Positions 1,003-29,803 of a stretch of DNA of 29,803 nucleotides are shown piece by piece. Under the pieces are notes generated by a model that was not told the DNA's origin, ran no database searches, and saw nothing but the letters and a program-made list of their open reading frames with translations. This DNA comes from a virus (taxonomy: Duplodnaviria > Heunggongvirae > Uroviricota > Caudoviricetes): IMG/VR virus record IMGVR_UViG_2571042390_000006, positions 1 to 29,803 of that record; one strand, written 5' to 3'. Each line of letters begins with the position of its first letter. The first letter of the stretch is position 1. The translations under genes and the position numbers were made by a program.

Positions 1003-1007
1003 TTTAG

Positions 1008-1355: not shown

Positions 1356-1384
1356 ATCATTACCTCAATTTAGCTCAAGTAAGA

Positions 1385-2035: not shown

Positions 2036-2050
2036 GTCACCTCCCTACTA

Positions 2051-2455
2051 TCACCTACCCTTAGTTTCGTTATAGTCACGACCAGCGATACGGTTATTAC
2101 CACCAGAAATATTTAACTCACGTCCTGATGGCTGAGTTTCCTTTTCACTGATCGCACCTTTTAAAGCCCCAATCACCGCGTTTTTCACATCTAACGAAGC
2201 TGCTCGAAAGCGAGTAATCAACTCCTGCTCATCATCGTTATAAGTTTCAGGTGAGTGAATTCCCAACACAACATACTGAACATCAAGGCCAAAACGAGAC
2301 AGCGCTGCCAAATACGCAGCATCAGGAAAGCTATCTCCTTTCTCATATCTAAGCTGAGTTAGCTTTTTGACTCCACCAATGTCGCTCATGGCAACTTGAC
2401 TAAGTCCCAATCTTTCCCTTTCCTCACGCAACCGCTGACCAATATCATTTTTCAT
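2051..2455 (-). CDS. XRE-family helix-turn-helix repressor (candidate immunity repressor)
   Basis: HTH region IGQRLREERERLGLSQVAMSDIGGVKKLTQLRYEKG. Divergent from the early operon, in the position of P2 C / 186 CI. I chose the internal ATG (MKNDIGQ, 2453-2455) because the track start at 2530 would leave no room for the divergent early promoter. Confidence 0.7.
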   Translation of the reverse strand: MKNDIGQRLREERERLGLSQVAMSDIGGVKKLTQLRYEKGDSFPDAAYLAALSRFGLDVQYVVLGIHSPETYNDDEQELITRFRAASLDVKNAVIGALKGAISEKETQPSGRELNISGGNNRIAGRDYNETKGR

Positions 2456-2531
2456 ACAAAAAACCTTGACAGGTATCTTTTTTGATACCAAAATGATTTC
2501 ACGAGCTATTAGATGATCACAATATACCACT
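2456..2531. promoter_or_regulatory. Candidate lysis/lysogeny switch region with a dyad operator-like element
   Basis: 76-bp intergenic region between divergent repressor and early operon. Contains TTGACA (about 2466-2471) and the inverted repeat GGTATC-TTTTTT-GATACC (about 2472-2489). Exact promoters not resolved. Confidence 0.4.
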
Positions 2532-5299: not shown

Positions 5300-5562
5300 C
5301 AAAAAAACCGCTTGCCATGCCTCAATCGGTCAGGTTACATTTCCGCTGCAGCTCATAAAACGGGTGCCGGGATTCTCAACCCGATACAGAGCAAAGCGCA
5401 TAACCGCGCAAGCGGTTTTTTTGTGCGCACTGTATTGCCACGTCTTTTTCGCGTCAGAATTATGGCGGGGCGTACGGGGCCGACTTCGGTCGGGCCGGAT
5501 TCTTTGCTCTCCGGTGTTGAGAACCCTGTACGTCTCGCCACCCCGAGATTCTCAACTCTGGA
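5300..5562. other. Structured non-coding region (nested inverted repeats, three TTCTCAAC motifs, UUCG-loop hairpin)
   Basis: No convincing ORF. 9-bp inverted repeat at about 5307-5315 and 5408-5416; about 27-bp imperfect inverted repeat at 5368-5397 and 5497-5526; third direct TTCTCAAC copy near 5548; GGCCGAC-TTCG-GTCGG(G)CC hairpin near 5478-5496. Confidence 0.3.
5403..5422 (+). terminator. Candidate intrinsic terminator
   Basis: ACCGC-GCAA-GCGGT hairpin followed by a run of seven T, about 120 nt after the 4980..5279 stop. The stem is short. The right arm also pairs with AAAAAAACCGCTTGC at about 5301-5315. Confidence 0.4.
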
Positions 5563-10514: not shown

Positions 10515-10847
10515 ATGCAACACATTGACAGAGAAAAAGCGCAGCGACTGATTGAGCGGATGGAAGCGCTGGCGAAAGAAGAAAATGTCAACATCCAAAA
10601 AATAGCTGAATGTGGCCAGATAGTTCTTCGTCGTGAAAAAGACCTCAAACAACTGATGTCTGGCGAAACCAGCAAAACATGGACTTCAGGCGAGAAGACG
10701 GTTTATTGCAGTTTCTGCAATAAATCCCAGTACGAAGTCACAAAGGTGATTGCCGGACCGTCTGTTTACATCTGCAATGAGTGCGTGGATTTGTGCAATG
10801 AAATTATCAGGAAAGAAGTGACAGACAAAAAGGAAAAAAACGCATGA
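10515..10847 (+). CDS. Stand-alone ClpX-type C4 zinc-binding-domain protein with N-terminal coiled coil
   Basis: 110 aa. C-terminal [38 protein letters not shown] is near-identical to the N-terminal zinc-binding domain of enterobacterial ClpX ([39 protein letters not shown], from memory). No AAA+ module. AAGGGGGA RBS. Confidence 0.75.
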
Positions 10848-12782: not shown

Positions 12783-14485
12783 CAGAACTCCATAACCGTG
12801 AAACGCTCGTTTTCTCCTTCGCCGCCAATCGGTTCGTTAATGACAGCAAGCATGGTTGCCCACGCAAGGTCGCCGTGGCTGATCCCCCTCGCTCGGTCCG
12901 TTTCGTAAGTGATAAAGCCGCCCGGTGTTTTCACCTTACGCACGGCGTTAAAGGCCGCGACCAGCTCGCGTTCGGCGCGATCGTATTCCCACCGCCCGGC
13001 ACGCATTATTTGCAGCATTTTCAGTACCAGCGACCGTTTTGATGACAGCGTGAAGGTGTACGGAATAGCAGCAGGGAAAAACCGTTTCACTATCTGATAA
13101 ACAGCCTCCCCGTTCCCGCCCGTCACATCAATGCCGATGTGTTCCACGTTATAGCGACACGTGAACTCTTCAATGACTCTGGCCTGTTCTTCAAACTCCA
13201 GCCCCTGAACGCGTCGCGTCTCCACCGTTCGGAAACGGCCACCAGGAACAGCCGGAGGAACCACCACGGACACAGCACCGCTGTCGCCGTTGCCACTGCT
13301 GCCGTTTGCGTCATACCCAATCCATACCGGACGATTCCCCATCGGGCGGGGAGCAAAAGGTTTCCAGTCTTTCCAGTCGTCGTATCCGTCAACACCGCAG
13401 CCAATCAGGATATTCAGGTTAAATGCCGATTCCCCTTCGCGGACAAACTCACACATATAGAGATTGAGGAACTCGTCTTCGGTGTTTTCATCACGAATTT
13501 CGTCGATATCGGTGTGTTTCCAGCCGTGATTAACCACATCTTCCAGCGTGACAATTTGCCGCCAAGTCCGGTCAGGGCAGATAAGCCCGTTATGCAGCGT
13601 TTTCCAGTCCACAGAAAAACGCTGGCGTTTATGCGAGGCCTTTTTCTCGTTCCAGCGGTCGCCGTTCCAGTAGGCGTACGCCTCGTGCGTTTCGGTGGAT
13701 GGCGTGGAGAAGTAGGTGCGCCGCAGTCCGCTGAGGGTTGCCATAGCGCCAGCCACCTTGCGCAGTTCAGCAAAGCGACTGACCCAGAAAAATTCATCAA
13801 AATAAAAATTGCCCGTATAGGACTGTGCCGACGCAGCAGAAGTGCCGAGAAAATGCAGCTCTGCGCCGTTGGAGAGGATGATTTTATCGCCCCCTTTCAG
13901 CTCCACATCAACTTCAGCCGCGACCTTCTGAATAATGCTTTTAAACTGGAACGCCTGACGACGCGACGCAGACAAAAAAATCTGGTTACGCTGGTAAGGT
14001 TGCGCCACATCGTCACGCAGCGCCATCAGCAGAGCTTCCTGTGCAAAATACCAGGTCGCCCCAATCTGTCGGGATTTCAGGATCATCCTGTTACGTATCC
14101 CGGCTTCCCTGCAAAGTGTCAGGGAGTCAAACCAGCCCCGCTGATGCCACTCCAGCCTGCTGATGATTTTTTCCCGCAGTGCGGCAATCTGTTCCGGCGT
14201 GAAATGATTTTTAAGTTTTTTCGCCCGGCCTTTCTTTCCTGCGGCCATCACATCCGGCTGGCCATCATGCAGCTTTTTAAGCTGCCGGGTCAGCAGGTCT
14301 ATTTCCTTAAAGTCACCGCCTGTTTTATTCTGTTTTTCAGTAAGCTGGATGAGGCGCGCATCGATGGACTGCGTGACACGCTGCACGGGGGGCGTTTCAT
14401 CCCACTGGTCGCGTTTTTTCCACGCATAAATCGTGTTCGGGTTTATTCCCATCAGACGTGATATTTCTGCGGGCGGATACGACAC
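12782..14485 (-). CDS. P: Terminase large (ATPase) subunit, P2 gpP family
   Basis: 567 aa. Size and position match P2 P; sequence is characteristic of the family. The start appears to be GTG at 14483-14485. Confidence 0.88.
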   Translation of the reverse strand: MSYPPAEISRLMGINPNTIYAWKKRDQWDETPPVQRVTQSIDARLIQLTEKQNKTGGDFKEIDLLTRQLKKLHDGQPDVMAAGKKGRAKKLKNHFTPEQIAALREKIISRLEWHQRGWFDSLTLCREAGIRNRMILKSRQIGATWYFAQEALLMALRDDVAQPYQRNQIFLSASRRQAFQFKSIIQKVAAEVDVELKGGDKIILSNGAELHFLGTSAASAQSYTGNFYFDEFFWVSRFAELRKVAGAMATLSGLRRTYFSTPSTETHEAYAYWNGDRWNEKKASHKRQRFSVDWKTLHNGLICPDRTWRQIVTLEDVVNHGWKHTDIDEIRDENTEDEFLNLYMCEFVREGESAFNLNILIGCGVDGYDDWKDWKPFAPRPMGNRPVWIGYDANGSSGNGDSGAVSVVVPPAVPGGRFRTVETRRVQGLEFEEQARVIEEFTCRYNVEHIGIDVTGGNGEAVYQIVKRFFPAAIPYTFTLSSKRSLVLKMLQIMRAGRWEYDRAERELVAAFNAVRKVKTPGGFITYETDRARGISHGDLAWATMLAVINEPIGGEGENERFTVMEF

Positions 14486-15239: not shown

Positions 15240-16181
15240 ATGATTACCCCTGCACAGCAACACTGGCAGAACGTGATGGCGCAGCGCGCAGGCCGGGCGA
15301 ATGAAGGCGTGGATCACGCCGCACGTACCGCGCATGAAGAGGTGCTGTATCGTCTGCGTCTGGCACAGGCCCGACTTAAGGGCGTACAGGCCAGAAGCGC
15401 CAAAGCCGCCATCAAAAAAGAGTTGTTACCGGACTTTTCCGGCTGGATTGAAGGAACGCTGGAGGCTGACGGCGGGCAGCAAGATGAGGTGATTGCCACG
15501 CTGATGGTGTGGGCGATTGACTGCGGCGATCTTCCGCTGGCATTGCGTATTGGTGCGTATGTGGTCCGTCACAACCTCATCATGCCGGATAACTTTGGCC
15601 GTACTGCTGCCACGGTACTGACCGAAGAAATCTGCAACCCGGTACTGACGCAGGCCGGGACGGATGCCGACGCGGATTTGTCCGCCTTTATCGAACCACT
15701 GGACACACTTTGGGAAATTGTCGCCAACCAGGATATGCCGGACGAAGTGCGCGCCAAATTATGCAAGGCGTGCGCCTTTGCCCGCCGTGGCCTGAGCGAT
15801 GCGGACAGCATGGCCTCATCACTGAAGCTGCTGCGCGAAGCGATGCACCTGAACCCGAACGCAGGTGTGAAACGCGAGATTGCAACCCTTTCCCGCGCCC
15901 TGAAAAAAGCCGATTCCGCAGCCGAACCAGAAGACGCCAGCACACCGCAGGCGCAGGACGAAAGCAGCAAAAGTAAAAAGACAACGCGGAAGCCTGCAAC
16001 ACGAAAAACCACCGCGACGCAGAAGGCGAAGCGCGGTTACACCGACACAAAGGGACCATCAGCGCACTGCGCCGGGCCATTGAGCCGCTGGGATACCTCA
16101 TTCGCGTGTCTGAGTGGTGGGAGTTCGACGGCGAACCCGGAACATTCAAGGTTGATGTTGGCACGCTGGACAGTGGTGTGA
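15240..16181 (+). CDS. M: Terminase small (endonuclease) subunit, P2 gpM family; 3' end uncertain
   Basis: N-terminal 250 aa match P2 M, including the basic tail KKTTRKPATRKTTATQKAKRG. The ORF then runs on as junk-like sequence overlapping the L-like frame. Confidence 0.7.
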   Translation: MITPAQQHWQNVMAQRAGRANEGVDHAARTAHEEVLYRLRLAQARLKGVQARSAKAAIKKELLPDFSGWIEGTLEADGGQQDEVIATLMVWAIDCGDLPLALRIGAYVVRHNLIMPDNFGRTAATVLTEEICNPVLTQAGTDADADLSAFIEPLDTLWEIVANQDMPDEVRAKLCKACAFARRGLSDADSMASSLKLLREAMHLNPNAGVKREIATLSRALKKADSAAEPEDASTPQAQDESSKSKKTTRKPATRKTTATQKAKRGYTDTKGPSAHCAGPLSRWDTSFACLSGGSSTANPEHSRLMLARWTVV

Positions 16182-16349: not shown

Positions 16350-19007
16350 ATGAGCACGAAATTTAAAACCGCTATCACTACTGCCGGAGCCGCGAAGCTG
16401 GCAGCCGCCACTGTCCCCGGCGGGAAAAAAGTAACTCTGTCTGCAATGGCCGTGGGTGACGGTAATGGCAAATTGCCGGTGCCGGATGCCGGTCAGACGA
16501 AACTGGTGCATGAGGTCTGGCGTCACGCTCTGAATAAAGTCAGCGTGGATAACAAGAATAAAAACTATATCGTGGCTGAACTGGTTGTACCGCCAGAAGT
16601 GGGCGGCTTCTGGATGCGTGAGCTGGGTCTGTATGACGATGCCGGAACACTGATTGCGGTCGCTAACATGGCGGAAAGCTATAAGCCTGAACTCGCTGAA
16701 GGCTCCGGGCGCGCGCAGACCTGCCGCATGGTTATTACTGTCAGCAACGTAGCGTCCGTTGAGCTGAGTATTGATGCCAGCACAGTGATGGCGACGCAGG
16801 ATTACGTCGATGACAAAATCGCAGAGCATGAGCAATCCCGCCGCCATCCTGACGCCACGCTGACAGAAAAAGGTTTTACTCAGTTAAGTAGCGCAACAAA
16901 CAGCACCAGTGAAGAGCTGGCGGCAACGCCAAAGGCAGTAAAAGCAGCCTATGACAATGCTGAAAAACGTATGCAGAAAGACCAGAACGGTGACGATATT
17001 CCAGATAAGGGCGCTTTTCTGGACAATGTTGGCGTTACCAGCCTGACGTTTATGAAAAACAATGGCGAAATGCCGCTTGATGCTGACTTGAATACATTTG
17101 GTCCCGTTAAGGCTTATCTTGGCGTCTGGTCTAAAGCTACATCCACTAACGCGACGGCTGCTAAAAATTTCCCTGAAGACGGTGCAGTCGGTGTACTGGA
17201 GGTATTCAATGGCGGTAATTTTGCAGGAATGCAGCGTTACACCACCAGAACAGGCAATGTTTATATGCGCAACCTTTCTGGCACATGGAATGGTTCAGAC
17301 GGTCCGTGGAGTTACTGGCGTCAGGTTCAGTCTGCAACACGCCCCCTGAGCACAACCATTGACCTGAACACGCTCGGAGGCGCAGAGCATCTTGGTTTAT
17401 GGCGAAACAGTAGTGGCTCAATCGCTTCATTTGACCGCAACTATCCGGAAGAAGGAAGTTATGGTCAGGGACTCCTTGAAGTTCTTGAAGGTGGTGGTTA
17501 CTCGCGAACGCAGCGTTACACGACCCGCCGTGGAAATGTTTATGTTCGCTGTCTTTCGGCCTCGTGGGATGCAGAGAACCCACAATGGGAGCCGTGGTCA
17601 AGAGTGGGCTACCAGTCAGAAAGCCGTTATTACGACGGTGATTTGAATGATGTAACCTCACCAGGTATTTACAGCGTTACAGGTAAAGCGACCAATGGTC
17701 CAATACTGGACGGAAACGGCGTGACTGTACTCGGTATTCTGGAAGTGCTGAGGCGCTTTGATGGCGTTAACGTATGGCAACGTTATACAACCGCCGGAAC
17801 AGGTGCAACCCTTAAAGGTCGCACGTTTGAGCGCGTTTATACCGGCAGCTCGTGGAGCGAATGGCGGGAAGTTTACACATCTTATTCACTTCCCCTGAAT
17901 CTGGGTATCGGTGGCGCAGTGGCAAAACTCACCAGCCTGGACTGGCAGACCTACGATTTTGTGCCGGGCAGTCTGATAACCGTTCGGCTTGATAACATGA
18001 CCAATATTCCCGACGGTATGGACTGGGGCGTCATTGATGGCAACCTGATAAACATCGCAGTTGGTCCGAGTGATGATTCTGGTACGGGGCGCTCAATGCA
18101 TGTATGGCGCAGCACTGTAAGTAAAGCGAATTACCGCTTTTTTATGGTTCGCATTTCAGGAAATCCGGGAAGCCGCACGATTACGACAAGACGTGTGCCA
18201 ATTATCGACGAAGCTCAGACATGGGCGGCGAAACAGACATTCAGCGGTGGTCTTTCAGGCGAACTATCCGGCAATGCTGCTACAGCAACAAAGCTGAAAA
18301 CGGCAAGGACAATTAACGGCGTAAAATTTGACGGCTCGGCAAATATTGAAGCGTTTCCGCCAGGTGTTCCGCTGCCGTGGCCATCAGATACTGTGCCGTC
18401 TGGTTACGCCCTGATGCAGGGACAGACTTTTGACAAATCTGCATACCCGAAACTTGCAGCCGCTTATCCGTCAGGCGTGATCCCGGATATGCGTGGCTGG
18501 ACAATCAAGGGCAAACCCGCCAGTGGTCGGGACGTATTGTCTCTGGAACAGGATGGCATTAAATCGCACACCCACAGCGCCAGCGCATCCAATACGGATT
18601 TGGGTACGAAAACCACATCTTCGTTTGATTACGGTACTAAATCAACGAATAACACAGGTGCACATACCCACAATGTATCTGGTACTGCAAATAGTGCTGG
18701 CGCACATACTCATACCGTTCCATTAAGGAGACCAAACAGTGGCGGTATGAATTTCGACTGGCTGGATGGTGCATCAAGTGGCACGGTGGTGGGGAATGGA
18801 ACTGTGCCTTCTTCTGGCGCACATACCCACTCAGTATCAGGTACCGCTACAAGTGCTGGGGCACATGCACACACTGTTGGTATTGGCGCTCATACGCACT
18901 CTGTTGCGATTGGTTCACATGGACATACCATCACCGTTAACGCTGCTGGTAACGCGGAAAACACCGTTAAAAACATCGCATTTAATTATATTGTGAGGCT
19001 TGCATAA
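16350..19007 (+). CDS. H: Tail fiber protein (P2 gpH family) with divergent repeat-rich receptor-binding region
   Basis: N-terminus [25 protein letters not shown]...EVWRHALNK...[29 protein letters not shown] matches the P2 H N-terminus. Three internal QRYTT..GNVY..LS..W repeats and C-terminal GAHTHxV repeats. Confidence 0.88.
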
Positions 19008-19624
19008 TGGCATTCAGAATGAGTGAACAATCACGTACTGTAAAAATTTATAACCTGCTGGCCGGAACTAATGAGTTTATTGGTGAAGGTGACGCATATA
19101 TTCCACCTCATACAGGGCTGCCAGCTAATTCTACAGATATCGCCCCACCGGAAATTCCTGCTGGCTTTGTGGCAATTTTTAACAGTGAAAATGAATCGTG
19201 GAATATTGTTGAAGACCATCGTGGTAAAACGGTCTATGACGTGGCATCGGGGGACGCGTTGTTTATTTCTGAACCCGGACCGCTACCAGAGAATGTCACC
19301 TGGTTGTCGCCAGCAGGGGAATATCAGAAGTGGGACGGCGTATCCTGGGTGAAGGATGAGGAAGCAGAAAAGCTGTTTCGGATACGGGAAGCGGAAGAGA
19401 AAAAGGCAAGGTTGATCCAGGAGGCAACAGATAACATCGCAATTCTGCAGGATGCAGTTAATCTTGAAATAGCAACAAACGAGGAAAATTCACAACTGGA
19501 TTCCTGGAGAAAATACAGAGTATTAGTGAGTAGAATTGACACCAGTACAGCTCCGGATATCGTATGGCCAGAGCTGATGAATCAGGGTTATGTGCGGGAG
19601 GACGAGCAGATAACTTCAGACTGA
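19007..19624 (+). CDS. G: Tail fiber assembly chaperone (gpG/Tfa family)
   Basis: 205 aa. Start overlaps the H stop (TAATG). C-terminal region [23 protein letters not shown] is typical of Tfa proteins. Confidence 0.8.
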
Positions 19625-20151
19625 AATTTAGTGATGAATGTTGAATCATCAGGAATATCATGCAATACCAATGCATGAGCACCTATTGTGACATTGTTTC
19701 CTATACGCACTTTGCCACCAAGAATGGTGGCATTACAACCAATGGTCACATTATGTCCTATAACAATATCCATATCATTAAAATCACCACGTAGCCCAAT
19801 AGTTACCCCCGGTTTTATTGAACAATTTTCACCGATTGTTACTTTGTGACCGATAACAACACTGTTGAGATAAGAAATATCAAAGCCTTTCCCTATATTT
19901 ACAGTTAAAGGGACTGTTACATTATATTTATCAAGAATGAAACGTTCTATTTTCCCCGCAATCTTCCGGCAGTATCCGCCTTTATCAAAAAGGTATTTGG
20001 CTATGCGCCACCAAAATAAATAACGAAGTCTTCTATGTTTTATTGCGCGAACAATTGCCTTTCGCCAGGAGAAAGGACGCTCGCTACCGATTACTTCATA
20101 GTGAATACAGTCTTTAAGTTCATTAATATTCATATCTCTATTATTCAGCAT
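19588..20151 (-). CDS. Hexapeptide-repeat (left-handed beta-helix) acetyltransferase, CysE/WcaB-like
   Basis: 187 aa with repeated [LIV]-G-x-x-x-x hexapeptides ([22 protein letters not shown]...[34 protein letters not shown]). AT-rich. Convergent with G and overlaps its 3' end. Occupies the position of Z/fun in P2. Confidence 0.78.
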
Positions 20152-20313
20152 AAGATAATCATGTGACCAATTATTGTAATAATTTTAATGGTATGTTTCT
20201 ACTGGCTATCCAGCATGTCTGATACCCAGTAACAAATCGTTAACGCGGGTGCAATCAAATGGTGAGTGTTAAGACTGGCCACTTATTACCAGGTATGAGT
20301 GGCCAGCATTAAA

Positions 20314-20808
20314 TCAGAACAGCCCTTTAACTGAACTGGCCGCGCTGTTAAGGGATGATGTCACTTTATCTTTGAAGCCGGACAGCATATCGCTGAACGA
20401 TGAGGATTGCAGGCGCTCCCGCAAATCCTCATCACAGCGTTCAAGGGTCAGTGAAAATTCTATCTTTTTCGCCTTACCGTAGCGATCAAACTCGGAACGG
20501 GTCGTGTTCGTTCCGGTCAGGACATACATGCCGTAAATCTGCCCGACGCCATCAATCAAAGGCCAGGGTCGTCCTGTATACGCCTGCGTGGTCAGCAGCG
20601 ACAGCGACACTTCGCCACCTGTAATTTCAGGATAAAGCACACCAGAAAGAACGATGCGATCATCACCTGCACCGATATACTGCCAGCTTGCTGAACGGTT
20701 AACGCGTTCATTTTTCACATGCCGCCAGCTTTTGTTTTGCTGTAACTGCTGATGCGGCAGCGTGCGCAGCTCAAAAACAAACATGCCGTAGATCATCATC
20801 ATGGCCAT
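20314..20808 (-). CDS. U: Tail protein gpU family
   Basis: 164 aa, downstream of the tape measure gene on the same strand; resembles P2 U. Confidence 0.75.
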   Translation of the reverse strand: MAMMMIYGMFVFELRTLPHQQLQQNKSWRHVKNERVNRSASWQYIGAGDDRIVLSGVLYPEITGGEVSLSLLTTQAYTGRPWPLIDGVGQIYGMYVLTGTNTTRSEFDRYGKAKKIEFSLTLERCDEDLRERLQSSSFSDMLSGFKDKVTSSLNSAASSVKGLF

Positions 20809-20814
20809 GACTCC

Positions 20815-23658
20815 TCAATCTTTATCGTAAAAACTGCCACGCCCGGCACGGGCGCGCCGTTCCATTTCTGCCCTGACCATTTCACCGACCAGTTTCGCCA
20901 GTTCGCGGGGATTCTGCGTAACAACGTTATGCAGATGAACATGAATTTCACCACCAAATCCGGAGGCAACAGGCTCCCGGTTACGGGAAGTTACAGGAAC
21001 TGATGCCACTGGAGATCGTATGGCCTCCGCCACCGGGCGGGAGCTGGCCGCAACAACAGGGACCAGCGCCGGAGGCAGCGGAGCCGGGACCACGGGTGTG
21101 ATATTAATTGCGGGGGCAGGCTTACTGACCTGCACAATCTTCCGCTCCTGCCACTCCCCACGAACGGCAAGTGCGCGGGGCAGGTTCTTAAAGACAATAT
21201 CGCCGGGGCCAATACGTTTTTTCGTCTCATCAACCAGCTTACCTGTGTTATCAGCAATTTTGCTGAGTCTGCGTAGCGTACCGGTATTGCTGTCTGTGAG
21301 CGGTTTATTGTCTTTGGGTTTATCACCTCCGGTGCCATTGCCATTTTCCGCAGACTTCGGCGGATTGATTTTCGCAATGTCTCCCTGAAACAGAGCAACC
21401 TTGTCCTGAAGAATGGCCGCACGCTGTGCGTCTTCGATTTTCTTTCTCGCCCTTTCCGCTTCATCCGGAAGCACACCGAGTTTTTCAAGTATCCACGCCA
21501 GCGTATCCAGCAACATTTTTGCGGGCGTCAGAACAAGCTGTAACGCACCGCCAAGAACGTTACCGAATATCTCGCCAGCACTGGTACATTTATCCAGCGT
21601 TTCCTTGCTGGACTCCATCGGTGACAGCAACGATTTAAACCAGTTAAACACCTGACTTATCCCGCTTCCGATTGCGTCAAAAACAGGACCAAACCGTTCA
21701 AAGGTTTCGCGTAACGGGGCCAGCCGCTCCATAATCCCGCTGAACACCCCGGCATAAAACGCCTTGATGGGTTCCCAGTATTTCCAGATGAGAACTGCCG
21801 CAGCCACAAACGCAGCAGCAATCAATCCGACCGGGCTGAACAGCGCCCCGATAGCGCCCCCCAGTAACGAAACGGAACCCGTCACCATTCCCCATAGTGC
21901 TGGCAGGAGCCTGACAGCATTCATTGATCCGGTCAGGAGAGAAAAACCAAGACGCAACGTGGCCAGCTTCCCGTGAAGCACTCCAATAACCAGCGACAAC
22001 GAGCCAACCGTTGCAGTCATTGCCAGCAGCGCACCGCCTGCTATCAGTAACTGGCGCGTCAGTACCGGATGGGCCTGTGCCAGCGCCGTCACCTTTGAGA
22101 CCACCCGCGTGAGCCACTGCGTGACAGAACGCAGCGGACCATCAATCAGATCTGCAATGCGGATACGCAGCCCTTCCCATGCACTGCCGAGTGATTTCAG
22201 GTCGCCATCAAGGTTATTGGCCATAACCTTTGCCGTGCGTTCAGCCTCACCGCGTGCGCCCTCAAGTTCTTTTCTCAGTTTGGGCAGGGAGCCGTCACCC
22301 GCCGCATCAACGAGAGCCATAAACGACGTGAAAGCCTCTTCCCCGGCAATGTCCTTAAAGAACGATACCCGGTCAACTTCCCCGTATTTACGGGTGGCTT
22401 TATAAAGGTCGGCCAGCACATCTTCCATCGGGCGCATTTTGCCGTTCGCATCAGAGACGGACACACCCAGCTCTTTCAGCGCTTCTGCTGCCGCCTTTGG
22501 CGGTGATGCCAGACGAGCCAGGCTGGCACGCATTGCCGTCCCGGCATCACTCCCTCTGATACCCATATTCGCCAGCACGCCCGCCATCGCTGCGGCCTGC
22601 TCCAGCGATATTCCCAGCTTACCCGCCACCGGACCTGCATATTTCATGGTTTCGCCCAGTGCGCGAAGGTCAGTGTTAGTACGGGTAAACACTGCTGTAA
22701 GCGTGTCACCGACCCGGTCCATCTGGTCAGCGGAGAGGCCGAACTGCGTCAGGATATTTGAGCCAATATCTGCCGTCTCGCCAAGGTCCATACCGCCAGC
22801 CGTTGCCATGCTCAGCACGCCGGGAAGCGCAGCCTGAATGGCCTGCGGTGTGAAGCCAGCCATTGCCAGAAATGCCTGCCCACTGGCGGCATCGCCTGCG
22901 GTGAACTGCGTTTCAGAGCCAAGTTTTAACGCCTGCTCACGCAGCGCCTTAAACTGCGGGCTGTTCTGGTCGATTCGCGTCAGTGCCTGAACGCGGGACA
23001 TCTCTTTCCCGAACCCGATCGCAGGCTGCAAAAAACGCCCGGCAGCATAGCCGCCCGCCGCTGCCGCACCAATTGCCAGTGCACCACCTGTTTTCAGTTT
23101 TCCCGCTGTTTCCTGCGCGCGCGAATACCGCTCACGCGCCCGCGTTACACGCGCAAGCGCCTGCCGTTCGCGTTCAAGCTGATTGTTGTACTGTTCGGTG
23201 CGTCTGATGGCCTGCTGGATGGTGTTATCGCTGCCTGTCAGGGAAATGCCGTGGCGTTTCAGCTCTCCGCCAAGCTCCCGCATTTTCTGAATTTCCCGCG
23301 TGCGCGATTCATTCAGGCGTTCAAGCCGGGTGCTTAACTGCTGCATCAGCTTTTGTTGTTTTTCGCTGAGCACTGTACCCGTGCGTTGTAACTGATTAAG
23401 GGCGTTAAGCTGGCGTCGTGCTTTCACGATACCCGCATCCGCTTTACTGACAGCGTCGCGGGCGCGCTCAAATGAACGCGCCTGACGCTCGAGATTTTTG
23501 ATCGCCCCCTGCGTTCGCTGGATGGAGTCACCAAACTGCCCCATCAGGCGGCGGGCGTTTTCGGCAGGCTGGGTCAGCCTGTCAACGGCGCTGAAAGCGA
23601 CCCGGATATCAAGAGTCTTCATTGTCTGCATTCCCGCTGCGAAGTGCCGCCCGCTCAC
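20815..23658 (-). CDS. T: Tail tape measure protein (gpT family)
   Basis: 947 aa, coiled-coil-rich N-terminal half and Gly/Ala-rich hydrophobic segments; follows the E/E' genes. Confidence 0.85.
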   Translation of the reverse strand: MSGRHFAAGMQTMKTLDIRVAFSAVDRLTQPAENARRLMGQFGDSIQRTQGAIKNLERQARSFERARDAVSKADAGIVKARRQLNALNQLQRTGTVLSEKQQKLMQQLSTRLERLNESRTREIQKMRELGGELKRHGISLTGSDNTIQQAIRRTEQYNNQLERERQALARVTRARERYSRAQETAGKLKTGGALAIGAAAAGGYAAGRFLQPAIGFGKEMSRVQALTRIDQNSPQFKALREQALKLGSETQFTAGDAASGQAFLAMAGFTPQAIQAALPGVLSMATAGGMDLGETADIGSNILTQFGLSADQMDRVGDTLTAVFTRTNTDLRALGETMKYAGPVAGKLGISLEQAAAMAGVLANMGIRGSDAGTAMRASLARLASPPKAAAEALKELGVSVSDANGKMRPMEDVLADLYKATRKYGEVDRVSFFKDIAGEEAFTSFMALVDAAGDGSLPKLRKELEGARGEAERTAKVMANNLDGDLKSLGSAWEGLRIRIADLIDGPLRSVTQWLTRVVSKVTALAQAHPVLTRQLLIAGGALLAMTATVGSLSLVIGVLHGKLATLRLGFSLLTGSMNAVRLLPALWGMVTGSVSLLGGAIGALFSPVGLIAAAFVAAAVLIWKYWEPIKAFYAGVFSGIMERLAPLRETFERFGPVFDAIGSGISQVFNWFKSLLSPMESSKETLDKCTSAGEIFGNVLGGALQLVLTPAKMLLDTLAWILEKLGVLPDEAERARKKIEDAQRAAILQDKVALFQGDIAKINPPKSAENGNGTGGDKPKDNKPLTDSNTGTLRRLSKIADNTGKLVDETKKRIGPGDIVFKNLPRALAVRGEWQERKIVQVSKPAPAINITPVVPAPLPPALVPVVAASSRPVAEAIRSPVASVPVTSRNREPVASGFGGEIHVHLHNVVTQNPRELAKLVGEMVRAEMERRARAGRGSFYDKD

Positions 23659-24138
23659 GCCAGCTAACCACTTCGCCGGGCGTCATCATGAAGATTTCGG
23701 CGGGCGACCAGTTAAAAATAACGGCAATATCTGCCACAAAGTCTTCTATGTGCTCAAAGCACACAACCGTGATCAGGCTTCCGTCGCCTGTTCGTTCTTC
23801 CCGCCAGAGTCCGCACCGCTCAAAAAATTTACGGCAACCACACATAACTGAATAAAGTCACGGGATGCCATTTTTTTGATCGTCACTTCATCCAGTCGCG
23901 GTGATGTCACTCGTGACAGCAGCGTAAACATGGATTCCGCTTTCAGATTCAGCACATCAGACAGCGACAAATCTCGCAGAGATCCAGCCTGCTCAATAGC
24001 CCCGGTGATCTCCACATACGTGATTTTTTCGCCGCCTCGCTCAATTGGTTGGGTAAGTTTTACGCCACGCTCACTGGTTTCTTTCACAGTGTCAGCAACT
24101 ACCGTGTTTTCGGTATCGATGTTTTTCGTCTCTTTCAT
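23609..24138 (-). CDS. Tail assembly chaperone E+E' (product of programmed -1 ribosomal frameshift)
   Basis: Slippery heptamer T-TTT-TTG on the minus strand (plus-strand 23821-23827) lies in the E frame. The -1 frame is open from there to 23609. Confidence 0.6.
23773..24138 (-). CDS. E: Tail assembly chaperone gpE
   Basis: 121-aa ORF between the tube and tape measure genes. Confidence 0.7.
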   Translation of the reverse strand: MKETKNIDTENTVVADTVKETSERGVKLTQPIERGGEKITYVEITGAIEQAGSLRDLSLSDVLNLKAESMFTLLSRVTSPRLDEVTIKKMASRDFIQLCVVAVNFLSGADSGGKNEQATEA

Positions 24139-24192
24139 CAGGAAACTCCTTTCAGTCAGAGGCGACGCACTGCGCCGCCTGCATATTACTTA

Positions 24193-24705
24193 TCAGCCAA
24201 GCCCAAGCGCGGAACGGATGCGATCGGGCACAATGTCCTTGCCGTCCTTCCGGTAAATGAAGTTCAGCAGGTCAATCTCCCACAACGGACGATCGTTAAC
24301 ACTCAGCTTGTAGTAGGTGTTTTTAATGGCGTAAGTGTGTGATGTGGCTTCGCCCTGTTTGGCTTCCCCCATATCAATTTCCGTCACGCGTCCGCGCATT
24401 TCGACTTCATACAGGTCGCTTTCTGCATCGGTGTAGTATTCACCCGCAAAACGCAGTAGCGTGCCGTCAATCGTGCCGCCATACTTAAGGAACAGCTCAC
24501 GAACTGCGCCCCCCATGACAAAGCTCGCATCAAGCGCGGAGTCGTCCAGACCGAGATCAATACTTACCGCACCCATCATGCCACCACCCCGGTAGCTGTC
24601 GGTTTTGCGCGTCAGTTTAGGCAGGGTGACGGACGTCACCTTACCCACTTCGTTTTCACCATCCACAAACAGCGTAAAAAAGCGAAGATGTTTTGGTACA
24701 GCCAT
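24193..24705 (-). CDS. FII: Tail tube protein (gpFII family)
   Basis: 170 aa, immediately downstream of the sheath gene; size and sequence are P2 FII-like. Confidence 0.85.
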   Translation of the reverse strand: MAVPKHLRFFTLFVDGENEVGKVTSVTLPKLTRKTDSYRGGGMMGAVSIDLGLDDSALDASFVMGGAVRELFLKYGGTIDGTLLRFAGEYYTDAESDLYEVEMRGRVTEIDMGEAKQGEATSHTYAIKNTYYKLSVNDRPLWEIDLLNFIYRKDGKDIVPDRIRSALGLG

Positions 24706-25889
24706 CAGGCACCTCCCAGCACCGCAAATGCGGGACCAAAGAATTCATCAGTAAACGACTGGTAAAGCTCCATGTCTTCCAGCGGAGGAACGGGCGTATA
24801 TTTGTAGCGAATACGCACACGCCCCTGACGTAAATTCGTGGTGCTGTTATCCACCACGTCATACCAGCACGACGCCCCAATCAGTTTCCCGGCAGTCACC
24901 AGTGAATCCAGTTTTGCCCTGATGGCACTGATAACATCCTTCACGTTCGCAGGCGTCAGTGGACTATCGATGGTTTCAAACTGCGCTTCCGCAATTGAAT
25001 CAGCCAGCACCTGTGCGGTTCGGGTATACACCTCAAAGATGTAGGCGTTCGTTTCCGGTGTGCGGTTGCCCCAGAAGCGGAACCCGTTGCGACGAATAAT
25101 GGTCGTGATTTCTTTGTTGTTGAGGCTGTTGGCATCACTGTCTTCGGCCTGCAACGACCAGAACACATGCCTGGACATCCCCAGCACATTTTTAACCGGA
25201 ACGTTGGACAGCGATTTGTGCCAACCCTGCTCATGGTCAATGTACGCACGAAGGCCGCACGCATAGGCAGGCGCGGGGAACGTTTCGTTTTTGCCACTTT
25301 TCGGGTTGTAGGCGATGAAGTCCGGCCATAAGAGCATCACCTCACGTTCGTTGAATTTCTGGCGGTAGGTAATCGCCTCAGCCATCGTGTTACAGCCGTG
25401 ACATGAGGCATACACAAACGCGCGCAGTTTACCCGCAATCACGCACAGGGATTTTGTTACCGCCTCCGTGTCCAGCTCCGGCGCGGCCAGAATACGCGGA
25501 CGGTATCCGATGCTTTCATCCTGCTCTGCAACAAGCAGCGCATACATCCCCGTATAGCTGCCGTCAGATTCAGAACCACCGATAACCAGTTGATCCTGCG
25601 TTTTTCCGTCTTCTTCTTTGTGTTCAGCCACGCGAACGACGATCACCTTTGTACTCACCTGGTCTGCGATGGCCTTAAGCGCACGATAAAGCGTCCCCGT
25701 TGTCCCGCATTTTCCCAGCACGTCATTGACGCGGGTCAGCAGTGTGGGCTTGTTCAGCGGGAACAGCTTCGCGTCCGCATCATCCGCCGTTGCCACGATA
25801 CCGATAACGCTGGAATCAACATCGTTAATCGCTGTTACCAGGTCGGTATTTTCCGTAACACGGGCACCATGAAAACGAGTTTCACTCAT
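24705..25889 (-). CDS. FI: Tail sheath protein (gpFI family)
   Basis: 394 aa. Motifs LRAFVYASCHGC, DHEQGWHKSLSNV, RRNGFRFWGNRT and YTPVPPLE match P2 FI as I recall it. Confidence 0.9.
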   Translation of the reverse strand: MSETRFHGARVTENTDLVTAINDVDSSVIGIVATADDADAKLFPLNKPTLLTRVNDVLGKCGTTGTLYRALKAIADQVSTKVIVVRVAEHKEEDGKTQDQLVIGGSESDGSYTGMYALLVAEQDESIGYRPRILAAPELDTEAVTKSLCVIAGKLRAFVYASCHGCNTMAEAITYRQKFNEREVMLLWPDFIAYNPKSGKNETFPAPAYACGLRAYIDHEQGWHKSLSNVPVKNVLGMSRHVFWSLQAEDSDANSLNNKEITTIIRRNGFRFWGNRTPETNAYIFEVYTRTAQVLADSIAEAQFETIDSPLTPANVKDVISAIRAKLDSLVTAGKLIGASCWYDVVDNSTTNLRQGRVRIRYKYTPVPPLEDMELYQSFTDEFFGPAFAVLGGA

Positions 25890-26046
25890 AGCTTCAGCCC
25901 CTTGTATCCGTTAAATGATTCGGCAACAATCATCACCCACCACGCGCGTAATCTCACCCCTGCGCCGTTCTCTCGCCACGGCGACAACAAAAAGCAGTAA
26001 CCCCCTCCGCACGCACATGCGACCATGCCGCACAGGGAGGGAGCAG

Positions 26047-27156
26047 ATGACCGACACCACCATGCAATTGCTCAGTCAGGGCACAGACCCCGTAAAAATG
26101 CCGGATTTTGATATTCTCGCGGAGGGTAAAACGCTGTCAGGCGTGGCAGAGCGCCTGATGAGCCTGTCACTGACCGACAACCGGGGATTTGAGGCGGACC
26201 AGCTCACCATCACGCTGGATGATGCGGATGGTCAGTTGCAGCTACCGCCACGGGGCGCGCGCCTGACGGTTCTCATTGGCTGGAAGGGAGAACCGCTGAC
26301 AGAAAAAGGCACTTACATTGTTGATGAAATCGCTCACGAAGGACCGCCGGACAGGCTGACTGTTTCAGCCAGAAGCGCAGATTTTCGGGATGAATTTAAC
26401 GTTAAACGTGAGGTGTCCTGGCATGATGTGACCGTTGAGCGTGTGGTATCCGCCATCGCTCATCGGTATGGTCTGAAACCGCAAATCAGCGAAATGCTGA
26501 TGGATATCGAAATCGACCACGCCGACCAGACCGAAGAAAGCGACATGTCCTTCCTTACGCGCATGGCGGAAATGCTGGGCGCAATCACTACGGTAAAAAG
26601 CGGTAATCTGTTATTCATCATGCCAGGCGGTGGCGTGAACGCACAGGGCCAGCCGTTGCCCTCGTTCGCCATCACGCGCAGCAGTGGCGATCGCCATCAG
26701 TTCCGCATTGCTGACCGCGAAGCGTATACGGGGGTACGCGCTTACTGGCTTGATCTTAATTACGGGAAAAAGAAAAAAGTCAGCGTGAAACGCCGCAAAC
26801 CGCCAAAACCCAAAAAGGAGAAAAGCAGCAGCCGTGAAGGTGATTATATGGAAGGCGCGGAAGGCAATGTGTTTGTGTTACGCAAGACCTATCAGAACGA
26901 ACAGGCAGCAAGACGCGCAGCGGCGGCAAAGTGGCAGCAGCTACAACGCGGAGCCGCATCATTCTCCATCACGCTGGCGCGTGGACGTGCAGAACTCTAC
27001 CCCGAAATGCATGGTACGGTAACAGGATTTAAAAGCGAGATTGATAATCAGGACTGGATCATTGCAAAAGCCGAGCACACTATTGATAACAGCGGCTTTA
27101 CCACGCAGCTTGAGCTTGAGGCAAAAATCCCGGAATGGATAGCGGAAACAGAGTGA
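26047..27156 (+). CDS. D: Tail protein / late control gene D protein (gpD family)
   Basis: Internal ATG with a GGGAGGG RBS; about 369 aa, similar in length to P2 D. Divergent from FI. Confidence 0.82.
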   Translation: MTDTTMQLLSQGTDPVKMPDFDILAEGKTLSGVAERLMSLSLTDNRGFEADQLTITLDDADGQLQLPPRGARLTVLIGWKGEPLTEKGTYIVDEIAHEGPPDRLTVSARSADFRDEFNVKREVSWHDVTVERVVSAIAHRYGLKPQISEMLMDIEIDHADQTEESDMSFLTRMAEMLGAITTVKSGNLLFIMPGGGVNAQGQPLPSFAITRSSGDRHQFRIADREAYTGVRAYWLDLNYGKKKKVSVKRRKPPKPKKEKSSSREGDYMEGAEGNVFVLRKTYQNEQAARRAAAAKWQQLQRGAASFSITLARGRAELYPEMHGTVTGFKSEIDNQDWIIAKAEHTIDNSGFTTQLELEAKIPEWIAETE

Positions 27157-27198
27157 GCAACTTAGAATAGCGGCAGCACCACGTTAAGGGAGGTCGCT

Positions 27199-27459
27199 AT
27201 GTTCCGTTGTCCGCTTTGTGGCGCATCTGCCCGTATCCGCACCAGTCGTCCGGAAAATGATTCAAACACCGTGCGGCAAAAGTATTACCAGTGTAACAAC
27301 CTGGAATGCGGCGTATGCTTCTCAACACTGGAAGCTTTCCATAAATTCACATCGAAACACGCCTCCGGCGTTCACTCTTCAGAAGGTATCCCGTGGCATG
27401 AACTGCCAGCTTCACACAGGGGAAACAATCAGATGAGCTTGCCTTTACCTCAGAATTAA
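27199..27459 (+). CDS. ogr: Ogr/Delta-family zinc-finger late transcription activator
   Basis: MFRCPLCGASARIRTS...YYQCNNLECGVCF: CxxC...CxxxxC zinc-finger arrangement and N-terminus as in P2 Ogr. 86 aa, longer than P2 Ogr. Confidence 0.8.
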   Translation: MFRCPLCGASARIRTSRPENDSNTVRQKYYQCNNLECGVCFSTLEAFHKFTSKHASGVHSSEGIPWHELPASHRGNNQMSLPLPQN

Positions 27460-27648
27460 CAGGCAGAATTGCCGGAGTAACAAAAAAGCGATAGATTACG
27501 TGCGGGTGCCTTTCGGCTGATGGTCGGAGGGAATACCCGAAGGCCGGATGTGGAAAGGCCCCGGAAAACATTTCTGTTTAACCGAGGCCCTAACCCGTCA
27601 ACCTAGCAAGTGATAGGTTAGCGCCTCTCCAACAAAGGAGCAAGCGCT

Positions 27649-27789
27649 ATGTCGCAAAAATCGCTTACGGCCATCACGTTCTGCGTGACGGTAATCCTCA
27701 TCATCTGGATGCTGCACGGTTCGCTGTGTGAAATACGGATGAGCTTCTGGGGAGCGGAGTTTGCGGCGTTCTTACAGTGTAAGCAGTAA
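27649..27789 (+). CDS. Hok/Gef-family type I toxin (46 aa)
   Basis: AAGGAG RBS. Product MSQKSLTAITFCVTVILIIWMLHGSLCEIRMSFWGAEFAAFLQCKQ has an N-terminal TM helix, the SLCEIR signature and an AAFL.CK tail as in HokA/Hok. Below the ORF-track size cut-off. Confidence 0.7.
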   Translation: MSQKSLTAITFCVTVILIIWMLHGSLCEIRMSFWGAEFAAFLQCKQ

Positions 27790-27877
27790 GGAAACCGCGA
27801 CGGGGAGGCAACTCCCCGTCAATCGGTTGCCGGGGTAAGGCCGATAAGGCACCCTATCTCATAGGCATGAATAACAA

Positions 27878-27910
27878 CCCCGCAGCGTAAAAACTGCGGG
27901 GTTTCTTTTT
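27878..27910 (+). terminator. Rho-independent terminator (end of the hok-like transcript)
   Basis: CCCCGCAG-CGTAAAAA-CTGCGGGG followed by TTTCTTTTT. Confidence 0.7.
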
Positions 27911-27978
27911 GGAACTCTCACTAGCTAGTGAGCCGTTAACTGCACATAATGCTCGCACAACAAATCAGTTAAAAGAGA

Positions 27979-28260
27979 TTACTCAGCATTCTCCTGCTTC
28001 CATTGCCGGATCATTTCATCGGTAACATCACTTTCATAACATACCACGTCATACCCTCCAGTACGGCTATATGCACTGCGTCCACCACATCTACTACCAT
28101 TCCTTGCATGATTATACGGACACGCACAATTGCCTGGATAAGATTCAATGGATTCTTTAATTATTTCTTTCTTGATCTGAGCATCTGACTTTCCTGTTGC
28201 TGCATACCCACTAAAAGATACCAAACAAAGGCAGATTGCCATTAATAAACCACATCGCAT
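27979..28260 (-). CDS. Small secreted Cys-containing protein of unknown function
   Basis: The internal start gives MRCGLLMAICLCLVSFSGYAA, a signal-peptide-like N-terminus. The mature part has four Cys (NCACPY...RCGG...VCY). AT-rich. The track ORF extends to 28374 with a TTG start. Confidence 0.45.
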   Translation of the reverse strand: MRCGLLMAICLCLVSFSGYAATGKSDAQIKKEIIKESIESYPGNCACPYNHARNGSRCGGRSAYSRTGGYDVVCYESDVTDEMIRQWKQENAE

Positions 28261-28493
28261 ACCGATACACTCTATTACTAACCAATCATAGCCCACATCA
28301 TAAAATCGAGATGAGGAGTACAACACCTTTAACAAGAAGGTGCCATCACGATAATATGCCGTGCAATTCATCAAAAAAAAGATCTATATCAAAGAGATAG
28401 AGTTATTATCAGTGCTGCAGACATCAGCATTCGAGGCAGCAGAAAGACAGTAAATCTAACGAATTTGTCTTTTTCTCAGGATGTTGTCAGATT

Positions 28494-28600
28494 AAAAAAG
28501 ATAGAGTAGCGCAGACACCTTTTGGTGGATGGTAGGAGGAAAAATGAAGTTGAGTGGGAAGATCCCAGAAAAAACTTTGGTTTAACCAAGGCCCTAGTTC
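28494..28600 (+). other. Second copy of the hok-leader-like sequence without an intact toxin ORF
   Basis: About 110 nt aligning at roughly 65-70 percent with the region upstream of the hok-like ORF (shared GATAGA, GATGGT.GGAGG and GTTTAACC.AGGCCCTA blocks). No Hok-like peptide downstream. Confidence 0.3.
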
Positions 28601-28733
28601 AATATGCGAAATGCAGATGAGTTGCAGGAGAGTTTTGCTTCACCCTTAGAGTTTAAACAGACGTGTACTATCATTATTTCTGCATATCGCCACACCATCG
28701 CCACTTTACCGCCATTTAACAAAATACAAATAC

Positions 28734-28758
28734 AAAAAAACCACCCGAAGGTGGTTTC
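28734..28758 (-). terminator. Rho-independent terminator of the tRNA operon
   Basis: ACCACC-CGAA-GGTGGT hairpin preceded on the plus strand by seven A (a U-run on the minus strand), about 45 nt beyond the 3' end of leuZ. Confidence 0.7.
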
Positions 28759-28800
28759 ACGACACTGCTTATTGCTTTGATTTTATTCTTATCTTTCCCA

Positions 28801-28887
28801 TGGTACCCGGAGCGGGACTTGAACCCGCACAGCGCGAACGCCGAGGGATTTTAAATCCCTTGTGTCTACCGATTCCACCATCCGGGC
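28801..28887 (-). tRNA. leuZ: tRNA-Leu (anticodon UAA)
   Basis: Reverse complement reads GCCCGGATGGTGGAATCGGTAGACACAAGGGATTTAAAATCCCTCGGCG...GGGTACCA: cloverleaf, long variable arm, anticodon loop UUUAAAA, 3' CCA. Confidence 0.95.
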
Positions 28888-28899
28888 TCGGGAAGAAAG

Positions 28900-28973
28900 T
28901 GGAGGCGCGTTCCGGAGTCGAACCGGACTAGACGGATTTGCAATCCGCTACATAACCGCTTTGTTAACGCGCC
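28900..28973 (-). tRNA. cysT: tRNA-Cys (anticodon GCA)
   Basis: Reverse complement reads GGCGCGTTAACAAAGCGGTTATGTAGCGGATTGCAAATCCGTCTAGTCCGGTTCGACTCCGGAACGCGCCTCCA. Confidence 0.95.
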
Positions 28974-29027
28974 AAATTCTTCAGGCCTTTCAGCCAGACA
29001 TCCGCTTGAGGCCGATGTCTTTTAAAC

Positions 29028-29103
<76 letters not shown>

Positions 29104-29254: not shown

Positions 29255-29803
29255 TCACTGATCAAGCAAATCTGCACGCGCAGCGCTCAAATATTGCAAC
29301 ATTGACCACAGAGTCAGTACCGCAGCCACAAAGAAAAGTGCAATACCGGCGTACTCAACCCAAATGTTCGGACGCCACAGCAGCCAGGCCAACGCCACCA
29401 TCTGGGCAGTGGTTTTCACTTTCCCAATCCAGGAGACAGCCACGCTACTGCGTTTACCCAACTCCGCCATCCATTCGCGTAGCGCAGAAATAATAATTTC
29501 ACGGGCGATCATCGTTGCCGCCGGTAGGGTCACCCACCAGCTGTGATAATGCTCGGTTACCAGCACCATGGCGATAGCCACGAGAACTTTATCTGCTACA
29601 GGGTCAAGGAAAGCACCAAACCGGGTACTCTGGTTCCAGCGGCGTGCCAGAAAACCATCGAACCAGTCAGTCACCGCCGCGACGCAGAAAATGAGCGCGG
29701 CGGCAAACGGCGACCAGGTGACAGGCAGATAAAAGACCAATACAAAGAATGGGATAAGGATGACACGGAACAGTGTAAGCAACGTAGGGATATTAAATTG
29801 CAT
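29255..29803 (-). CDS. pgsA: CDP-diacylglycerol--glycerol-3-phosphate 3-phosphatidyltransferase
   Basis: 182-aa polytopic membrane protein with the CDP-alcohol phosphotransferase motif (DWFDG...FLDPVADK). Conserved synteny pgsA-glyW-cysT-leuZ. Confidence 0.93.

Follow-up and report, generated by a model that had tools for sequence, protein, structure and literature searches.

Orientation of the FI to U tail genes in a P88-type prophage and conservation of the FI/D junction among its relatives

Gene order and orientation of the tail region

A stretch of 29,803 nucleotides (hereafter the window; positions 1 to 29,803 of IMG/VR record IMGVR_UViG_2571042390_000006, Caudoviricetes) contains a P2-family prophage located beside the host genes leuZ-cysT-glyW and pgsA, with tRNAs at 28801-29103 and an open reading frame (ORF) at 29255-29803 that reads as PgsA. 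The current work concerns the tail region of this prophage, in which FI, FII, E/E', T and U lie on the minus strand between the tail-fibre genes H and G on one side and D and ogr on the other, all four of the latter being read from the plus strand (Table 1). This order of genes and strands had been reported in a first-pass annotation made from the sequence alone, and ORF analysis, Pfam matches and tblastn against phage P2 agree on it; the divergence of FI and D from a shared region of 157 bp, also described there, was likewise confirmed. That annotation had treated the span 19588-26046 as one tail module, which holds for FI to U, while the portion at 19588-20151 proved to be an acetyltransferase moron.

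For the comparison with P2, the proteins of the window were searched by tblastn against NC_001895 and its annotated map. Q, P, N, M, I, H, G, D and ogr were found on the same strands as in P2, with only U, T, E, FII and FI being located on the opposite strand. The gene content expected of a P2-type arrangement was recovered by Pfam and tblastn (FI, FII, E/E', T and U, in the P2 internal order), and the departure from that arrangement consists in FI to U not being co-directional with V-W-J-I-H-G and D-ogr, and in D not being the last gene of the series.

Three details of the gene models require mention. A slippery TTTTTTG for E/E' was read from the sequence and the ORFs at 23827-23821 on the minus strand, as predicted for a programmed -1 frameshift, and the Pfam search gave no match for E. 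The true start of T is probably an ATG near 23622-23631. The longest ORF of D opens at 25915, and the ATG at 26047, which is preceded by the Shine-Dalgarno sequence GGGAGGGAG and is the start annotated in P88, is the likely biological start.

Table 1 Features of the tail region of the window, with the basis of each assignment and the amino acid (aa) identity of the product to its counterparts in phages P88 and P2 (E', -1 frame extension; PWM, position weight matrix)
Feature	Position	Strand	Basis and remarks	Identity to P88	Identity to P2
H, tail fibre	16350-19007	+	Pfam Phage_tail_fib, Phage_fiber_2, Collar		
G, tail-fibre assembly protein (Tfa type)	19007-19624	+	Pfam Caudo_TAP		
Hexapeptide-repeat acetyltransferase, moron	19588-20151	-	Pfam Hexapep		
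Hairpin just past U stop codon	20262-20296	-	RNA fold -20.7 kcal/mol, z = -2.36		
U, tail protein	20314-20808	-	Pfam Phage_P2_GpU	100%	46%
T, tape measure protein	20815-23658 (longest ORF)	-	Pfam PhageMin_Tail	97%	33%
E, tail assembly chaperone	23773-24138	-		97.5%	31.8% (P2 E)
E+E', tail assembly chaperones	23609-24138	-	E' as -1 frame extension to 23609		
FII, tail tube	24193-24705	-	Pfam Phage_tube	100%	42%
FI, tail sheath	24705-25889	-	Pfam Phage_sheath_1, Gp18_domIII_N, Phage_sheath_1C	98%	45%
FI/D divergent control region	25890-26046 (157 bp)	.	Between FI and D starts		
Predicted -10-like element, leftward FI promoter	25928-25934	-	GATGATT, +44..+50 from dyad centre, conserved block; predicted start ~25922		
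Ogr-type activator dyad TCT-N12-ACA	25969-25986, centre between 25977 and 25978	.	Spacer conservation and PWM		
Predicted -10-like element, rightward D promoter	26018-26026	+	TGCGACCAT, +41..+49 from dyad centre; predicted start ~26033		
D, baseplate hub / late control D protein	26047-27156	+	Pfam Phage_GPD	99%	49% (from residue 19 on)
ogr, zinc-finger late-gene activator	27199-27459	+	Pfam Ogr_Delta, E = 5e-14	99% (unannotated ORF)	36% (P2 Ogr)

Conservation of the arrangement in phages and bacterial genomes

Direct blastn comparison places positions 20309-27910 of the window in a single block collinear with 27595-35188 of Escherichia phage P88 (NC_026014 / KP063541, genus Xuanwuvirus) at 96.8% nucleotide (nt) identity, with the proteins of the F block, D and ogr being 97-100% identical at the aa level. 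On the P88 map the fibre and assembly genes (+) are followed by an alternative fibre cassette with a DNA invertase, then by U, T, E', E, FII and FI (-), and then by D (+). The ogr homologue of P88, at 34476-34733, carries no annotation in the RefSeq record. A megablast search of 19000-27500 against phage genomes furthermore aligned 20309-27500 in one piece, at 95-97.5% identity, to Escherichia phages PhiR44_2, P88, P884B11 and Chuche and to Citrobacter phage PhiSM, the last being contiguous in the alignment across the FI/D junction. P88 is inducible and forms plaques and contractile-tailed virions (PMC5285337), and PhiSM, a temperate relative of P88 from Citrobacter rodentium, is released spontaneously and gives plaques (PMC6456863). 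The arrangement is therefore carried by functional phages, as these genomes directly attest.

Similarity to Xuanwuvirus is not confined to the tail region. Blocks of 95.8-97.3% identity, collinear with P88, cover replication, portal/terminase and all of 20309-27910, with lower values in the early region (85-91%) and in I/H (71%), and, as in this genus, the FI to U block of the window lies inverted with the fibre genes on one side and D on the other, FI and D diverging from their common spacer; a complete set of virion and lysis genes was not found in the window. Comparison with P2 and related phages, one of the checks proposed in the first-pass annotation, found only FI to U to be flipped relative to P2 and 20309-27910 to be collinear with P88.

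The same sequence is also common in host chromosomes. The segment 19000-27500 is 100% identical in several complete E. coli genomes (e.g. O6:H16 strain 2014EL-1346-6 and FORC_031), and the FI/D junction is 100% identical in more than ten independent assemblies. A query limited to the junction (25300-26700) aligned contiguously, at a coverage of at least 80%, in 1108 of the 5426 complete E. coli genomes searched. A sensitive search with the junction retrieved both of its halves, in the same relative orientation and at 66-71% nt identity, from Enterobacter phage phiT5282H, Serratia phage KSP20, Salmonella phages SEN4/5 and many phages of Klebsiella, 3LV2017 and ST16-OXA48phi5.4 among them; the annotated maps of phiT5282H (Novemvirus) and 3LV2017 (Reginaelenavirus), both from further genera of Peduoviridae, display the divergent layout.

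The distribution was then quantified on a set of 160 loci with a D homologue, taken from IMG/VR and from one genome per GTDB species and classed by tblastn. The divergent state (FI on the minus strand, directly upstream of D) was assigned to 137 loci and the P2-type state (U followed by D) to the other 23, with no locus being ambiguous; no alternative orientation occurred within the divergent D clade (0/137). Where detectable upstream of divergent loci, the N-terminal domain of H (95 loci) and J (60 loci) share the strand of D without exception, and the whole FI to U block is therefore flipped relative to both of its flanks. Record titles of divergent loci include the genera Salmonella, Klebsiella, Enterobacter, Serratia, Erwinia, Pantoea, Edwardsiella, Xenorhabdus, Photorhabdus, Providencia, Morganella, Yersinia, Hafnia, Pectobacterium and Brenneria, all of them Enterobacterales, and both layouts are present in several host genera. 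Neighbour joining of 143 distinct D sequences, with P2 as the root, places the divergent loci in one monophyletic group. A 226-kb contig titled Vagococcus sp. WN89Y (NZ_JBQPOM010000071.1), hence filed under a Gram-positive genus, has the same layout and a D 98% identical to that of the window, and is likely a contamination or a mislabelled assembly.

These data bear on how the inversion of approximately 5.7 kb suggested by the first-pass annotation is to be understood: FI to U are indeed inverted relative to P2, and the rearrangement is not private to this locus. A recent, private event, for instance one accompanying the decay of the prophage, would be in keeping with the two deletions that distinguish the prophage from P88 and with a layout unlike that of P2, and is nevertheless scarcely credible when P88, which is intact and forms plaques, shares the layout at 97-100% aa identity, when 20309-27910 forms one collinear P88 block, and when the same junction is present in 1108 E. 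coli genomes and the same layout in several other phage genera.

Equally negligible in probability is that the orientation reflects an assembly artefact or one state of a programmed invertible segment (a switch of the Gin/Cin/Hin type). Such a switch has a certain appeal, P88-type phages carrying a DNA invertase that adjoins the 3' end of U and flips the tail-fibre cassette. The hallmarks of a Gin/Cin/Pin/Hin-type segment, namely an adjacent invertase, inverted-repeat sites and both orientations among relatives, are however all missing here. No invertase ORF was found in 19000-27500, and the 187-aa ORF at 19588-20151, considered as a Hin/Gin-type invertase, was rejected as such by its Pfam and NCBIfam matches, which are those of a hexapeptide acetyltransferase. 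Between 20100-20330 and 25860-26080 the longest inverted match is 8 nt, a length equalled or beaten in 86 of 300 shuffles, and neither inverted nor direct repeats beyond chance were found at the two block junctions, in agreement with the remark in the first-pass annotation that obvious inverted repeats were lacking. The other orientation was seen in 0/137 loci, and many complete genomes assembled independently have an identical sequence, so that the assembly error and the mixed orientations considered in that annotation find no support.

It is accordingly regarded as highly probable that the window holds a defective P88-type prophage (Xuanwuvirus, Peduoviridae) with its tail genes in the order normal for its lineage, the FI to U block having been inverted long ago, fixed since and now defining a clade. 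What had been read as an anomaly is the norm among functional relatives (P88, PhiSM) and in 137 of 137 clade loci. The layout is already known, in the sense that it is plain in public annotated genomes of a common, classified phage genus; since it is normal for such a common and sequenced genus, there is no reason to flag a rearrangement or an assembly problem here. Conversely, the P2 map is unsafe as a template for all "P2-like" prophages, approximately one fifth of complete E. coli genomes carrying the alternative layout.

The FI/D spacer and the origin of the arrangement

Spacers from divergent loci were reduced to 42 non-redundant sequences, 40 of which contain a dyad T(G/C)T-N12-ACA whose spacing to the start codon of FI is conserved. 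Ogr-dependent P2 late promoters have the consensus TGT-N12-ACA (PMC3931495). No site exactly matching TGT-N12-ACA is present in the spacer of the window, and its dyad, TCT-CTCGCCACGGCG-ACA, surfaced through the comparison of homologous spacers with one mismatch being allowed. A PWM trained on the dyads of the clade, the lineage of the window itself being excluded, scores 26.4 bits at this dyad and 11.9 bits at the next-best position of the entire window. When applied to P88, the matrix has its two best sites in the FI/D spacer and in the P/O spacer (14224/14225, 20.9 bits), and its best site in P2, though weak, is the annotated pO/pP activator site. Both the conservation of the dyad and its specificity thus have direct support. 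The P88 record annotates a "hypothetical protein" at 33155-33286, across the FI/D spacer, which is probably spurious. A weaker P88 match (14.9 bits) lies at approximately 18652 (-), inside a DUF2570 gene of the lysis region; as P88 has no gap upstream of V, the tail and baseplate genes might be transcribed late from this internal site.

Each of the four late promoters of P2 has its annotated start at 56-57 nt from the centre of its dyad, a single site being common to pP and pO, and in phage Smp131 PP' and PO' likewise correspond to a single dyad read both ways (PMC3931495). When the 40 spacers were anchored on the dyad, conserved blocks were found to flank it on both sides: in the respective direction of transcription, GAT(T/G)AT at +44..+49 on the left and TG(A/G)AA(C/T)CAT at +41..+49 on the right. 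Both blocks are at the position of the -10 elements of P2 pF (TGAAAAT) and pO (GGAAACT). The D-side element of the window corresponds by homology to the conserved clade block TGAAAC(C/T)AT and is similar to the -10 elements of P2 pO and pF. Measured from the dyad centre, the start codons are at +89 (FI) and +70 (D), for predicted leaders of approximately 33 and 14 nt. Two features of an Ogr promoter are thus present, a dyad upstream of late genes (with one mismatch, TCT for TGT) and a phage-encoded zinc-finger activator of the Ogr/Delta type (27199-27459), and the geometry is compatible with an Ogr/Delta late promoter, its dependence on the activator being a prediction from sequence. A simple sigma-70 consensus scan found no promoter inside the FI/D spacer, a result which weak promoters would escape; it fits with activator-dependent promoters, for which it is as expected, and is uninformative alone.

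The first-pass annotation had reasoned that D, being separated from the F operon, needs a promoter of its own, and this view gains support from the conserved dyad and the -10-like elements of the spacer. From these features, and by analogy with P2, we infer a pair of Ogr-dependent promoters with start sites on both sides of the dyad, and a single symmetric Ogr operator, which would serve divergent FI-U and D late promoters, is the best-supported mechanism. D might instead be transcribed from an Ogr-independent promoter, or the dyad might serve one direction only, with a separate element for the other genes. The unlike sequences of the left and right blocks and the unusually short predicted leader of D would suit such an arrangement, as would the absence of a sigma-70 promoter from the spacer by simple scan, although weak ones would be missed. 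It is nonetheless judged unlikely, if to be kept in mind, given one high-scoring dyad per spacer at a conserved distance to both start codons, -10-like blocks that lie to the left and right at +44..+50, where P2 late promoters have theirs, and the precedent of the shared P2 pP/pO site.

As to the origin of the layout, the gap between G and the F block is a cargo hotspot, occupied by Z/fun in P2, by the invertase in P88 and by the acetyltransferase in the window, and the match to P88 starts at 20309, 5 nt outside the U stop codon. In P2, the U stop codon overlaps the D start and the G-FI gap holds Z/fun. In the ancestor of a P2-related branch of Enterobacterales phages, FI-FII-E/E'-T-U would have been inverted together with its late promoter, one breakpoint falling in the cargo hotspot that follows G and the other where U meets D. 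Such an inversion would have carried pF and its dyad next to D, and FI and D would from then on have been transcribed divergently from a spacer of approximately 150-200 bp containing one Ogr-type dyad, T(G/C)T-N12-ACA. If P2 pP/pO is taken as the model, this one dyad would most likely activate both a leftward (FI to U) and a rightward promoter (D, probably into ogr), and D would stay under late control despite having left the F operon; because the dyad is symmetric, D could have been expressed late at once after the inversion. The N-terminal ~18 residues of D are not conserved with P2 and are variable within the divergent clade, which is consistent with a rebuilt 5' end.

An alternative history is that of module replacement, in which an FI-U cassette from another myovirus lineage was inserted by chance in the opposite orientation. 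In its favour are the mosaicism of the Peduoviridae and the G/FI boundary, known as a hotspot for cargo genes; module replacement is nevertheless improbable. FI, FII, U and T are as distant from P2 (32-49% aa identity) as are D and the head proteins (Q 47%, P 44%, N 43%, M 37%), the internal order FI-FII-E/E'-T-U and the E/E' frameshift are kept, and the dyad of the FI/D promoter region is of the same type as that of the phage's own P/O region. The similar divergence of head and tail proteins favours an inversion in situ over a foreign tail module, and for this reason we infer that the history was a single inversion in situ.

Taken together, the full proposal is that one symmetric Ogr operator drives FI-U and D (with ogr), that this bidirectional activator site made the inversion tolerable, and that the inversion is a clean synapomorphy; as a whole it is held to be somewhat likelier to be right than wrong. 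Several points weigh against the overall explanation given here. The start sites and the Ogr dependence in the lineage of the window are predictions; its dyad has a mismatch (TCT for TGT), though one common to many clade members and to the P/O site of P88; the predicted leader of D is short (~14 nt); and the -10-like elements match the consensus weakly. The P2 layout is taken as ancestral from general knowledge of more distant P2-like phages. In the literature searched, neither the inversion nor a divergent FI/D promoter was found to be explicitly described, the statement that the layout is already known resting on public annotated genomes; the "opposite orientation" mentioned in the paper on phage RsoM1USA concerns the integrase and not the tail genes. 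If the proposal is true, the inversion splits Enterobacterales Peduoviridae into two deep lineages which coexist in the same host genera. The FI/D spacer represents a compact candidate for a bidirectional Ogr-dependent promoter.

State of the prophage and comparison with known systems

Relative to P88, the window has two deletion joints, at 14478-14479 and 16038-16039, the flanking alignment blocks overlapping by 2 nt at each. The first corresponds to the loss of P88 14098-15500 (the first 54 nt of the large terminase gene P, the P/O promoter region, the scaffold gene O and the 5' third of the capsid gene N) and the second to that of P88 17063-22254 (L, X, holin, endolysin, R, S, V, W, J and the 5' end of I, a stretch with genes for head completion, lysis, tail completion and baseplate). 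Because these two deletions remove scaffold, lysis and baseplate genes, the prophage is defective and cannot make particles, though FI-U, D and ogr remain intact. The match to 19000-27500 is split in two in several E. coli genomes that are otherwise 100% identical, with an IS1 family transposase annotated beneath, and in other lineages IS30 or IS100 insertions are located in the sheath or tape-measure genes; these insertions are further signs of decay in this prophage family.

Upstream of the F block, H is a mosaic of a P2-like N-terminal domain and a different distal part, its residues 1-204 being 85% identical to P2 H and 67% identical to P88 H. Window positions 19000-19404, nearly all of which belong to the 5' part of G, have 85-87% nt identity to the stf/tfa (side tail fibre / assembly) region of lambda. 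The adjoining acetyltransferase gene has a GC content of ~0.40, is absent from P88 and is common to phage vB_EcoM-613R2. Its NCBIfam matches (EpsC, CysE and WcaB) are all below the family cut-offs, and the PGAP name is "serine acetyltransferase"; it may be a conversion gene which modifies surface polysaccharide. The hairpin between this gene and U is a possible terminator of the leftward F transcript, predicted from its fold, with a poor U tail and a marginal z; it is located in the cargo segment not common to P88, and the simple terminator scan did not call it.

Further observations concern regions outside the tail genes. Upstream of the replication gene there are gathering-level Rfam matches to isrK (5348-5422 (+), 59.5 bits) and to C4 antisense RNA (5458-5545 (+), 78.5 bits), which suggests a C4 antisense immunity or antirepressor module of the P1/P7 type in a P2-family phage. 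The lysogeny end (1-2530 (-)) is unlike that of P88, the integrases being 39% identical; it encodes a 159-aa helix-turn-helix protein (2051-2530 (-)) with weak matches of the RstR/DicA type, an ORF with a weak partial match to Flk (1385-2035 (-)) and an ORF without a family match (1008-1355 (-)). A 110-aa product encoded at 10515-10847 (+), the gene for which is also present in P88, matches the N-terminal zinc-binding domain of ClpX over its C-terminal 50 residues below threshold. Downstream of ogr, a 43-nt direct repeat (79% identical; 27550-27592 and 28554-28596) is found ~200 nt from the 3' end of tRNA-Leu, and the interval 27911-28800, for which P88 gave no match, includes a 131-aa ORF without annotation (27979-28374); the region and its repeat may be att-related or the remnant of another element.

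Among known systems, the closest is P88, with which the window shares H and G (+), U-T-E'-E-FII-FI (-), D and ogr (+), the FI/D spacer and its dyad. It differs from P88 in lacking the two segments named above, in having the acetyltransferase where P88 has the alternative fibre cassette and DNA invertase, and in its integrase, repressor region and distal tail fibre. More distant phages have the same junction at lower identity (66-71% at the nt level, as given above), with other cargo genes and hosts: phiT5282H and 3LV2017 possess the FI(-)/D(+) junction with the conserved dyad and, in addition, a U convergent with fibre or assembly genes, while for KSP20 and SEN4/5 the match spans the FI-D junction, oriented as in the window.

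The F operon of P2 (FI-FII-E-E'-T-U-D, promoter pF; NC_001895) is similar with respect to its genes, their internal order, the E/E' -1 frameshift, the neighbours (G upstream and D-ogr downstream) and an Ogr-type dyad upstream of FI. It differs in that FI to U of the window are opposite in strand to H-G and D-ogr, in that D is not the last gene of the operon, and in a protein identity of only 32-49%. Finally, the P2 pP/pO region differs from the FI/D spacer in its gene pair (P and O as opposed to FI and D) and in its starts, which are mapped 56 nt either side of the centre in P2 and are predicted in the window; what both have in common is one dyad of the TGT-N12-ACA type midway between divergent sets of late genes, with -10-like elements ~44-50 nt away on each side.

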